From contig JAMCUI010000009.1 in NCBI GenBank assembly GCA_023379265.1, positions 252,908 through 316,907 of the forward strand: a stretch of 64,000 nucleotides of DNA. Direction: 5' to 3'. The position numbers were made by a program, and so were the translations under genes. This document shows, piece by piece, positions 29,237 through 31,222 of this stretch (position 1 is its first letter; each line of letters starts with the position of its first letter). The notes under the pieces are model-generated. The model searched no databases. It was not told the DNA's origin and saw only the letters and a program-made list of their open reading frames with translations. This stretch comes from Patescibacteria group bacterium. Its GTDB lineage: Bacteria > Patescibacteriota > Microgenomatia > 2-02-FULL-39-11.

Positions 29237-30187
29237 ATGAATAAAAACTTCTGGGAAAAGAAAAAAGTGCTCGTCACGGGAGGCGCTGGATTTTTAGGTA
29301 GCCATCTAGTCAATAAGCTGAAGGAAATGGGTGCTGATGTTTTTGTCCCCAGATCAAAAGAGAATGACTTGCGGAAAATTGAAGTTTGCAGAAGAGTAGT
29401 TAAGGACAAGGATATAGTTATACATCTTGCAGCAAAAGTAGGAGGAATAGGTTTTAATCTTGCACATCCTGGAGAAATGTTTTATGACAACATATTGATG
29501 GGCACATATCTTATTGAGGAAGCTAGGAAGGCAGGGGTAAAGAAATTTATAGCTCTTGGTACAATCTGTGCCTATCCTAAATTTACTCCTGTCCCTTTTA
29601 AGGAGAAAGATTTATGGAATGGATATCCTGAAGAAACAAACGCCCCGTATGGTTTAGCCAAGAAGATGCTTTTAGTTCAAGCTCAAGCTTACCGGCAACA
29701 GTACGGGTTTAATACAATTTTTCTCTTACCCGTCAATCTGTATGGTCCAGGTGACAATTTTGACCCGTCTTCATCACATGTTATTCCTGCTCTTATTAAA
29801 AAAATCTTTGATGCCAAAAAAGAAGGAAGACGATCAATTATTGTATGGGGTACAGGTAAGCCTACACGTGAGTTTCTGTATGTTAAAGATGCGGCGGAAG
29901 GAATAATTTTGGCAGCAGAAAAGTATAATAAGCTTGATCCGGTAAATTTGGGCGCGGGATTTGAGATTTCTATAAGAAATTTGATAGGACTTATATGCAA
30001 ACTTTCAGGATATTCTGGAAAGATAATTTGGGATAAAACTAAGCCAGACGGCCAACCACGAAGGAAATTGGATACATCAAAAGCTTTCAAGGAATTCGGA
30101 TTTAAGGCCCATACTGATTTTGAAGTTGGTTTGAGAGAGACTATAGAGTGGTATAGAGCAAAGTACGTTACAGGGAGATATGAATAA
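29237..30187 (+). CDS. fcl: GDP-L-fucose synthase (GDP-4-keto-6-deoxy-D-mannose 3,5-epimerase/4-reductase)
   Basis: Near-collinear with E. coli Fcl: '[12 protein letters not shown]', 'HLAAKVGGI', 'ICAYPKF', '[11 protein letters not shown]', '[26 protein letters not shown]' and '[20 protein letters not shown]'. Confidence 0.85.
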
Positions 30188-30199
30188 AATTTTGTATTT

Positions 30200-31222
30200 A
30201 TGGTTAGCAAGAGATTCTGGAAAAAGAAAAAAGTACTCGTAACAGGTGCTTCATTTATAGGGTCACATCTTATAGATAGACTGGTGGATATGGGAACGAA
30301 GGTAAGAGTAGTAAATATAAGTAAAAAACATCTACCCTTTTTTTCTAAACTAGTGAGAAGTGGCAGCGTTGAATTCATATCTAGAGATCTTCGTAATTTA
30401 GAAAATGCGCAAAAAAGTGTAAGAGGAATTGATATTGTTTTTCACCTTGCCTGTAATTACGGAGGTAGAGGATACATAGATTTACATCAGGGTTCTACCT
30501 CATCTAATTTGCTTCTTGATGGATCTGTATTTTTGGCTTCACTAAATGAAAGAGTGGAGAAAGTGGTTTTTGCCTCTTCAGGTTGTGTTTATCCAAATTT
30601 TTTACAGACTGATCCGAATAAAACAATATATCTCAAGGAAGAAATGGTGAAACCTCCATATGATGTAGATAATATGTACGGATGGGCAAAACTTATGGGT
30701 GAGATGACTTTGCGTGCATATTATAGAGATTTCGGATTAAAGTCCGTTTCATGCAGGTATTTTTCCGTCTATGGAGAAAGAGAGGCAGAGAACCATGCGG
30801 TGATCGCCATGATTGCCAAAGCCTTCATTAGACAAAATCCTTATGAAATCTGGGGTACGGGAGAACAGATAAGAAATTGGACTTATGTAGCCGATACTGT
30901 GGAAGGTACGCTTTTAGCTGCAGAAAAGATAAATGACGCAACATCGGTAAATCTTGGAACTACTGAGAGAACAAAAGTAATTGATGCGGCTCGGGAGATT
31001 TTACGTTGTACGGGATCTAATGCTAAAATAAAAGTTTTACCATCCATGCCTACAGGACCTTACAATAGGGTAGCCGATAACCGGCTGGCAAAAAAGCTTT
31101 TAGGTTGGGAGCCTCAGGTGAAGTTTATGGATGGGTTACATAGGACAATAGAATGGTATTTTGCCAACAAAAATGAAAATCAGATCAGAAATTGCTTAAA
31201 AAAGATTCTTTTAGGGAGCTAA
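30200..31222 (+). CDS. NAD-dependent epimerase/dehydratase family protein, diverged paralog of fcl
   Basis: The N-terminus '[21 protein letters not shown]' parallels fcl '[22 protein letters not shown]' but lacks one Gly of the Rossmann motif. 'YGWAKL' supplies YxxxK. 340 aa. Confidence 0.6.
   Translation: MVSKRFWKKKKVLVTGASFIGSHLIDRLVDMGTKVRVVNISKKHLPFFSKLVRSGSVEFISRDLRNLENAQKSVRGIDIVFHLACNYGGRGYIDLHQGSTSSNLLLDGSVFLASLNERVEKVVFASSGCVYPNFLQTDPNKTIYLKEEMVKPPYDVDNMYGWAKLMGEMTLRAYYRDFGLKSVSCRYFSVYGEREAENHAVIAMIAKAFIRQNPYEIWGTGEQIRNWTYVADTVEGTLLAAEKINDATSVNLGTTERTKVIDAAREILRCTGSNAKIKVLPSMPTGPYNRVADNRLAKKLLGWEPQVKFMDGLHRTIEWYFANKNENQIRNCLKKILLGS

Follow-up and report, generated by a model that had tools for sequence, protein, structure and literature searches.

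Within the 64,000 nt of contig JAMCUI010000009.1 analysed here (hereafter the window), a Patescibacteria (Gottesmanbacteria-like) genome carries two adjacent open reading frames, ORF1 and ORF2, that encode extended short-chain dehydrogenases/reductases (SDRs) and whose window coordinates are given in Table 1. The two genes are read from the same strand, are separated by 12 nt and encode proteins with 32% identity across their full length; both are part of a very large surface-glycan locus. An original prediction, made from the letters of the stretch, regarded ORF1 as a textbook GDP-L-fucose synthase (Fcl) and ORF2 as a tandem fcl duplicate with a defective Rossmann glycine motif and a new function. 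Both reading frames are present, as are all the strings quoted in that prediction, which in ORF2 read TGASFIGSHL, YGWAK (amino acids 160-164) and ACNYGGRGYID (amino acids 84-94). The proposed relation between the two genes does not hold. ORF1 and ORF2 appear to be independent members of the branch of extended SDRs that comprises Fcl and GDP-mannose 3,5-epimerase (GME), and their kinship is an ancient paralogy at the level of SDR subfamilies, with no local duplication. The explanation that best covers the whole, to which we assign a probability of roughly 0.7, is that ORF1 makes GDP-L-fucose and that ORF2, from an independent lineage, epimerises another nucleoside diphosphate (NDP) sugar.

The sequence of ORF1 follows that of Fcl closely in the functionally relevant positions. 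The protein matches Pfam PF01370 with 194 bits, and its best match among PDB structures is the GDP-L-fucose synthase 8du0 (E 2e-66), followed by the E. coli and human enzymes. In a neighbour-joining tree that includes a single canonical Fcl, the ORF1 family and the solved Fcl 8du0 are grouped with a bootstrap of 0.99. ORF1 contains the glycine loop TGGAGFLG at residues 14-21, Arg39 after beta2, Thr109, Cys111, Tyr138, Lys142 and His181. Of these, Cys111 and His181 align to the Cys/His pair of Fcl and are invariant in 119 homologues, while Arg39 stands where E. coli Fcl has the Arg that binds the NADPH phosphate; a W204-G-x-G-x-P-x-R-E-F segment matches the GDP-site motif of Fcl. Among the 119 homologues, 118 columns reach a conservation of 95% or more, and ORF1 departs from none of them; comparison with the 88% relative (locus L007) gives a dN/dS of 0.04, which indicates strong constraint. 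Homologues of ORF1 are annotated as GDP-L-fucose synthase by both PGAP and JGI. Judged by these features, ORF1 is a regular member of an Fcl subclade rich in Candidate Phyla Radiation (CPR) and DPANN sequences, and its predicted activity is most likely the synthesis of GDP-L-fucose. GDP-4-keto-6-deoxy-mannose would be epimerised at C3 and C5 with the help of Cys111 and His181, and then reduced at C4 by NADPH.

The GDP-L-fucose so formed would serve as the donor for transferases of families GT10 and GT11 encoded in the same locus. The GT10 gene noted in the original prediction is confirmed by the Pfam match listed in Table 1, which spans positions 16-130 of the 182 of the profile, and by the motifs CFEN at amino acid 272, YITEK at 281 and IPVY at 295. 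Two further genes of this kind follow the end of the window at a distance of 2-7 kb, on a contig (L106) whose positions 1-11812 are 100% identical to window 52189-64000: one of family GT11, the alpha-1,2-fucosyltransferase family (L106 12926-13759), and a second GT10 (L106 15760-16701). With three fucosyltransferase-family genes in one locus, two GT10 and one GT11, the locus holds more of them than had been recognised; this supports a GDP-fucose-type donor, and hence the assignment of ORF1.

ORF2 matches PF01370 with 133 bits (cutoff 20.9), and its best PDB match is a plant GDP-mannose 3,5-epimerase (E 8e-38), with Fcl at only 5e-13. An AlphaFold model built from 43 homologues (pLDDT 89.7, pTM 0.90) gave as its top Foldseek matches the GME structures 2c5e, 2c54 and 8sg0 (TM 0.81-0.84, E 2e-28), followed by Mth375 and then by NAD-dependent 4-epimerases. 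In the neighbour-joining tree the ORF2 family is monophyletic (bootstrap 1.0) and lies outside GME and Fcl together; a clade with the ORF1 family has a bootstrap of 0.0, and one with GME 0.17. The family, never grouping with that of ORF1, therefore makes up a third lineage in the branch of Fcl and GME. Homologues 60-73% identical to ORF2 occur in Gottesmanbacteria, Omnitrophota, Chloroflexota, Acidobacteriota, Planctomycetia and other phyla.

Invariant in 118 homologues of ORF2 are Ser126/127, Cys129, Tyr160, Lys164, His199, Arg225 and Arg290. Among them are the SDR triad Ser126/127-Tyr160-Lys164, which serves hydride transfer at C4, and an Fcl-type Cys129/His199 pair at the positions where Fcl deprotonates and reprotonates C3 and C5. 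The YxxxK motif that the original prediction considered to be kept is indeed there, with both its Tyr160 and Lys164 invariant. The end of beta2 carries a conserved Asp or Asn, typical of NAD-binding epimerases. Taken with fold, selection and gene contexts, these residues make it most likely that ORF2 is an NAD(P)-binding enzyme that changes the configuration of an NDP-sugar at C5 and/or C3; cofactor, nucleotide, substrate and product are all inferred, the binding of NAD(P) from the conservation and the purifying selection described below. In the loop that would hold the dinucleotide, Ser18 would stand in for the Gly that contacts the pyrophosphate, and epimerisation would proceed through a 4-keto intermediate. 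The enzyme might be redox-neutral, as GME is, or perform a final reduction, as Fcl does, and would in either case deliver a second L-configured sugar donor. Its substrate may be a sugar that has not been oxidised, GDP-mannose or an NDP-uronate, handled in a GME-like manner; a Gmd-type product, handled in an Fcl-like manner; or an NDP-hexuronate supplied by the neighbouring dehydrogenase. WbmF-class enzymes offer a precedent for Cys-dependent 3,5-epimerisation of UDP-uronates (PMC12820599).

The features of ORF2 that had been taken for signs of a damaged copy are common property of its lineage. In 116 of 118 homologues, Ser takes the place of the middle Gly of the TGxxGxxG loop. The loop reads TGGASFIGS in distant clades of the family, and all 33 close homologues of the Gottesmanbacteria type read TG[AV]SFIGS or a near variant, one residue shorter. 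The substitution is therefore a trait of the lineage and the deletion a trait of the subclade, and neither is a lesion or a loss private to the window copy. The beta1-loop-alphaA block that contains it is modelled with a pLDDT of 92-97. Likewise, the stretch described as an unusual insert (HLACNYGGRGYID) aligns without gaps to the segment of GME that reads LAADMGGMGFIQ / NLAADMGGMGFIQ (AADMGGMGFIQ) and to the matching stretch of ORF1, so that by alignment the 'insert' is the homologous loop of GME and Fcl. Its consensus in the ORF2 family, [AC]DHGGRGYV, is near-invariant (DHGGRGYVDLHQ); the window copy has Asn at 86 and Tyr at 87. The N-terminus that ORF1 and ORF2 have in common, previously called idiosyncratic, is a W/K-rich motif found in 116 of 117 members of the ORF2 family and 108 of 117 members of the ORF1 family. 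It resembles the YWPSE of GME and is ancestral to the two families and GME.

ORF2 is intact and under purifying selection. By the original prediction's own account, a pseudogene in relatives would have refuted the idea of a new function; no such decay is seen, as the comparison with the 88% relative L007 gives a dN/dS of 0.20. That with a 66% relative gives a pN of 0.24 against a pS of 0.78. The window copy and the 88% relative are also the most deviant members of the family that were sampled, with 6-7 changes at conserved columns where the median is 1. Between the window and L007 (8956-11020), the dS of ORF1 is about 2.2 and that of the adjoining ORF2 about 0.32, which hints at a mosaic history, with recombination or a recent transfer of the ORF2 segment. 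These deviations, together with the contrast in dS, would leave room for a lineage-specific change of specificity and give no sign of decay. A weaker form of the neofunctionalisation idea thus survives, in that the window copy is among the most deviant members of its family; a broken or freshly neofunctionalised fcl duplicate it is not, its odd motif being normal for the lineage.

Table 1. Features discussed in the text, in window coordinates.
Feature	Position	Strand	Description
ORF1	29237..30187	+	316 aa; extended SDR of the Fcl clade, probable GDP-L-fucose synthase (3,5-epimerase/4-reductase)
ORF2	30200..31222	+	340 aa; lineage sister to GME and Fcl, uncharacterised; predicted NDP-sugar C3/C5 epimerase, may also reduce C4
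Glycine-rich loop of ORF2	30242..30262	+	TGASFIG, aa 15-21; Ser18 where TGxxGxxG has its middle Gly; one residue shorter
Loop after beta4 of ORF2	30449..30487	+	ACNYGGRGYIDLH, aa 84-96; called an insert in the original prediction
GT2 - DUF2304 - GT2 module	27435..29233	+	226, 121 and 261 aa; directly upstream of ORF1
NodU/CmcH-type carbamoyltransferase	46678..48393	+	Pfam Carbam_trans_N and Carbam_trans_C match
GT10-family (fucosyltransferase-type) glycosyltransferase	57662..58792	+	Pfam PF00852, 61.5 bits (cutoff 23.9)

The window as a whole is a single large glycan-assembly locus, with many GT2 and GT4 glycosyltransferase genes, a YfhO-like protein, Wzm/Wzt ABC transporter genes and an AsnB-type amidotransferase. 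Directly upstream of ORF1 stands the GT2-DUF2304-GT2 module, in which Pfam confirms the gene at 28448 as GT2. Comparable arrangements accompany ORF1 homologues in CPR relatives: GT2-DUF2304-GT2-Fcl-like in L103, GT2-GT2-Fcl-like in L105, and GT2-DUF2304-GT2 a few genes upstream in L001. The GT2 and DUF2304 pair resembles the mycobacterial polyprenyl-phosphate sugar synthase pair PpgS/Rv3632; by this analogy, the product of the Fcl-like enzyme might be attached to a lipid carrier and in this form serve the GT-C enzymes. In L105, from another CPR genome, the ORF1 homologue is also accompanied (11621-15329) by genes for a transaldolase, a HAD phosphatase, an NTP-transferase, a SIS-isomerase and a GHMP-kinase, a set that resembles a GDP-glycero-manno-heptose pathway.

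The surroundings of ORF2 homologues were surveyed within 3 kb in about 80 loci. The commonest annotated neighbour is a NodU/CmcH-type carbamoyltransferase, found in 17 of them; it accompanies the family in L001, L003, L010, L013, L014, L022, L024 and others, often with overlapping stop and start codons. In a count over the approximately 50 loci with usable flanks, a GT4 just downstream (28 loci) is the commonest neighbour overall. A Ugd-like nucleotide-sugar dehydrogenase directly adjoins the homologue in nine of the ~80 loci, and scores below the cutoff of every specific NCBIfam model that would mark it as a UDP-glucose or a GDP-mannose dehydrogenase. An ORF1-type gene is near an ORF2 homologue in four loci (L001, its duplicate L002, L007 and L023), and Gmd, GDP-mannose 4,6-dehydratase, in two (L023 and L068). 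The idea of ORF1 and ORF2 as an obligate pair was rejected, as they adjoin in just these four of ~80 loci of the ORF2 family and in none of three of the ORF1 family, the three CPR loci with close ORF1 homologues having no ORF2 homologue.

Three of these loci are instructive in their gene order. The Gottesmanbacteria locus L001 is syntenic with the window and reads ORF2-homologue, ORF1-homologue, carbamoyltransferase, RmlD-like SDR, GT4, AsnB, GT4, Wzm/Wzt; the order of the ORF1 and ORF2 types is thereby inverted relative to the window. L023, from Planctomycetia, reads carbamoyltransferase, Fcl-like, Gmd, Fcl-like, ORF2-homologue, WcaI-family GT4, and L068 reads Gmd, a 275-aa ORF, ORF2-homologue, with no Fcl on that short contig. 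Both Gmds pass TIGR01472, the Gmd model with a cutoff of 415 bits, at 462 bits (L023) and 493 bits (L068). The Gmd gene of L023 (6671-9064), between the two Fcl-like genes and the ORF2 homologue, is a 797-aa ORF with an insertion of about 440 aa, so that the model is matched in two stretches; from its sequence the insertion looks like an intein (NHEC...HNSP).

The carbamoyltransferase that directly follows the ORF2/ORF1 pair in L001 is separated from ORF2 in the window by an inserted minus-strand block (32956-46497) that L001 does not have. The block encodes a glucose-1-phosphate cytidylyltransferase-like protein, a CDP-glucose-4,6-dehydratase-like protein (SSDKAYG) and RfbH (635 bits, cutoff 423), along with an acetolactate-synthase-like thiamine diphosphate enzyme (41000-42814), a PtmA-like SDR, a Gfo/Idh/MocA oxidoreductase, FkbM methyltransferases and a NeuB-like protein. 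It looks like a separate route to a CDP-3,6-dideoxyhexose, possibly a branched sugar akin to yersiniose, and we do not connect it with ORF1 or ORF2. One idea considered was that RfbH (32956-34236) acts as ColD does and partners ORF1, which would then be a colitose or ascarylose synthase. This was rejected because RfbH belongs to the self-contained CDP-sugar block, absent from the syntenic L001, and because the ORF1 family keeps its own GT2-DUF2304-GT2 context without RfbH. At the other end of the window, positions 6816-8510 and 9372-19316 encode seven tandem membrane paralogues of the PMT/PMT_2 type (GT-C-like), 540-590 aa long and matching one another with 180-380 bits, which constitute a real tandem paralogue array.

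The original prediction found no gmd in the window, and this is borne out. A phmmer search with both proteins against all six-frame ORFs of the window returned only five SDR-type ORFs, none of them gmd, and each of the five scores at most 74 bits, or not at all, against TIGR01472. Of the SDRs examined as candidate Gmds, the one at 19408 is GalE-like, that at 44745 resembles CDP-glucose-4,6-dehydratase, and that at 38941 is a small protein of RmlD/heptose-epimerase-like type. Flanking sequence was added through identical contigs, 9.2 kb upstream and 9.4 kb downstream (18.6 kb in all), and the two SDRs of the upstream flank proved RmlB-like and GalE-like. The dehydratase that feeds ORF1 is expected to lie elsewhere in the genome.

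Several observations weigh against the explanation favoured here. For ORF1, no gmd is found within the 82.6 kb formed by the window and its 18.6 kb of flank, which leaves the supply of its substrate unproven, and in three loci close CPR homologues of ORF1 likewise have no adjoining gmd. ORF1 also scores 291.2 bits over its full length against the NCBIfam equivalog for Fcl, GDPFucSynFcl (NF047922), below the cutoff of 500, with the second-best family far lower at 108 bits. Taken with the 39% identity to a solved Fcl, this score makes the word 'textbook' too strong, while the membership of the Fcl family that it was meant to express is supported. For ORF2, the cofactor loop is one residue short, and amino acids 86-98 (30455-30493) are the sole stretch of the model with a pLDDT below 50. 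Near-invariant positions are altered by H87Y, V93I, T189S and G195E, common to the window copy and the 88% relative, and H87Y sits in the family-specific DHGGRGYV loop. The neighbours of ORF2 homologues vary by genome, and neither the carbamoyltransferase (17 loci), the Ugd-like gene (9), Gmd (2) nor the Fcl-like gene (4) fixes a substrate. Finally, the ORF2 lineage has no assayed or solved member, and our literature search found no paper characterising it, nor any on fucose in Patescibacteria.

Other accounts of ORF2 can be set against this evidence. It is possible, if on balance doubtful, that ORF2 is a second Fcl-like epimerase/reductase, acting on the Gmd product or another NDP-4-keto-6-deoxyhexose to give a 6-deoxy-L-hexose other than fucose. 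The Fcl-type Cys/His pair would suit this reaction, as would the genuine Gmd genes upstream of the homologues in L068 and L023 and the occurrence of the ORF2 type beside the ORF1 type in the window, L001, L007 and L023. In the subclade of the window the end of beta2 reads Asn followed by Lys or Arg and could accept NADP; most homologues, however, have there an Asp typical of NAD+ and not of NADPH. Gmd is nearby in only two of the ~80 loci, and both the fold and the sequence of ORF2 are closer to the redox-neutral GME.

That closeness could suggest that ORF2 is simply an orthologue of GME converting GDP-mannose to GDP-L-galactose or GDP-L-gulose, a reaction that would need no gmd. The best matches of sequence and fold are indeed GME; Cys129 aligns with Cys145 of GME, the motifs around Q223-x-R225 and R290 align with GLQTRSF and GRNSDN, and the Asp/Asn that ends beta2 fits a tightly bound NAD. 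We nonetheless consider orthology unlikely. ORF2 shares 29-31% identity with GME, whereas bacterial GDP-mannose 3,5-epimerases (GM35Es), which rely on a Cys/Lys pair, reach about 50% identity with the plant enzymes (PMC6678494), and ORF2 has an invariant His199 where GME has Lys217. A clade with GME is recovered at a bootstrap of only 0.17, and the presence of Ugd-like and Gmd genes near the homologues in relatives speaks for other substrates.

The Ugd-like neighbours raise in turn the idea that the ORF2 family is a C5- or 3,5-epimerase of an NDP-hexuronate produced by them, yielding an L-hexuronate donor of the L-iduronate or L-taluronate type. AsnB-type amidotransferases often amidate uronates, and one is encoded both in the window locus and in L001. 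The direct adjacency of a Ugd-like dehydrogenase in nine loci would also agree with such a role, as would the precedent of WbmF-class enzymes, Cys-dependent SDRs proposed to be 3,5-epimerases of UDP-uronic acid derivatives (PMC12820599). This account seems to us decidedly improbable, given that the annotated genes of the window and its flanks include no Ugd-like gene, that the closest solved relatives of ORF2 are specific for GDP-sugars, and that the Gmd and Fcl contexts likewise indicate GDP-sugars. As for the local tandem duplication of fcl, with loss of the Rossmann glycine and either a new function or decay, a recent event of this kind is already refuted and the reading itself is very hard to credit: the two genes do adjoin on one strand with 32% identity and a similar N-terminus, no sampled members deviate more at conserved columns than the window copy and its 88% relative, and the dN/dS of ORF2 (0.20) exceeds that of ORF1 (0.04), but ORF2 never groups with the ORF1 family (bootstrap 0.0), its own family extends at 60-73% identity across many phyla, mostly with no Fcl-like neighbour (present in 4 of ~80 loci), the whole family has Ser for Gly in the loop, the similar N-terminus goes back to the ancestor of both families and GME, and the gene order is inverted in L001.

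The finding left over from the original prediction is modest but useful: a large conserved lineage, so far uncharacterised, that is sister to Fcl and GME. In annotations its members routinely appear under the generic label 'NAD-dependent epimerase/dehydratase' or under the wrong one, 'GDP-L-fucose synthase', and to assign the lineage a substrate would enlarge the known glycan repertoire of many uncultured phyla by one nucleotide-sugar step. We tentatively raise the idea, short of an even chance, that the lineage represents a new specificity class of NDP-sugar epimerase, combining a GME-like scaffold with the Fcl-type Cys/His pair and a GxxSxxG loop that is by nature without the Gly, and having thousands of members in Patescibacteria, Acidobacteriota, Chloroflexota, Omnitrophota and Planctomycetia. 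Such a class might make an L-sugar donor for which no biosynthetic gene is known, such as an NDP-L-hexuronate derived from what the neighbouring Ugd-like dehydrogenase produces, or an unusual GDP-6-deoxy-L-hexose that is carbamoylated at a later stage, and the window copy would be a diverged sub-variant with a shorter loop and the H87Y and G195E changes. It is also of note that, small as its genome is, this CPR bacterium devotes more than 80 kb to surface-glycan synthesis, fucosyltransferase-type enzymes included.

Among characterised systems, Fcl (Fcl/GMER/WcaG/TSTA3, EC 1.1.1.271) is the counterpart of ORF1, which resembles it in fold, full-length alignment, the Ser/Thr-Tyr-Lys residues, the Arg after beta2 and clade membership, and in the epimerisation pair, Cys109/His179 of the E. 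coli enzyme corresponding to Cys111/His181. The differences lie in a glycine loop that does not read AGHxGMVGSA, in the 39% identity and the score below the equivalog cutoff, and in the lack of an adjoining gmd. ORF2 shares with Fcl the Cys/His pair, but falls outside its clade and has no Arg after beta2; it scores 92.6 bits against the NCBIfam Fcl model (cutoff 500), over amino acids 100-325 only, and is 22% identical to the solved Fcl. GME/GM35E (EC 5.1.3.18; PDB 2c59 and 8sg0; bacterial MfGM35E) is closer to ORF2, with a similar N-terminal W motif, SS(A/G)C(I/V)YP with the catalytic Cys, and the YxxxK, Q-x-R and R-x-x-D-N motifs. Against this likeness stand the 29-31% identity, the replacement of the catalytic Lys217 by His199, by which the Cys145/Lys217 pair is not kept, the position outside a GME clade, and the GxxSxxG loop with one residue missing, which departs from the NAD motif GxxGxx[GA]. 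The WbmF/Mth375-type UDP-sugar 3,5-epimerase-like SDRs (PDB 2pzj and 6pmh), which are among the PDB and fold matches of ORF2, are also extended SDRs with a catalytic Cys placed as in ORF2; their similarity to it is much weaker (E 4e-25 and 3e-20, 25% identity), and their glycine loops differ (GGAGCVG).

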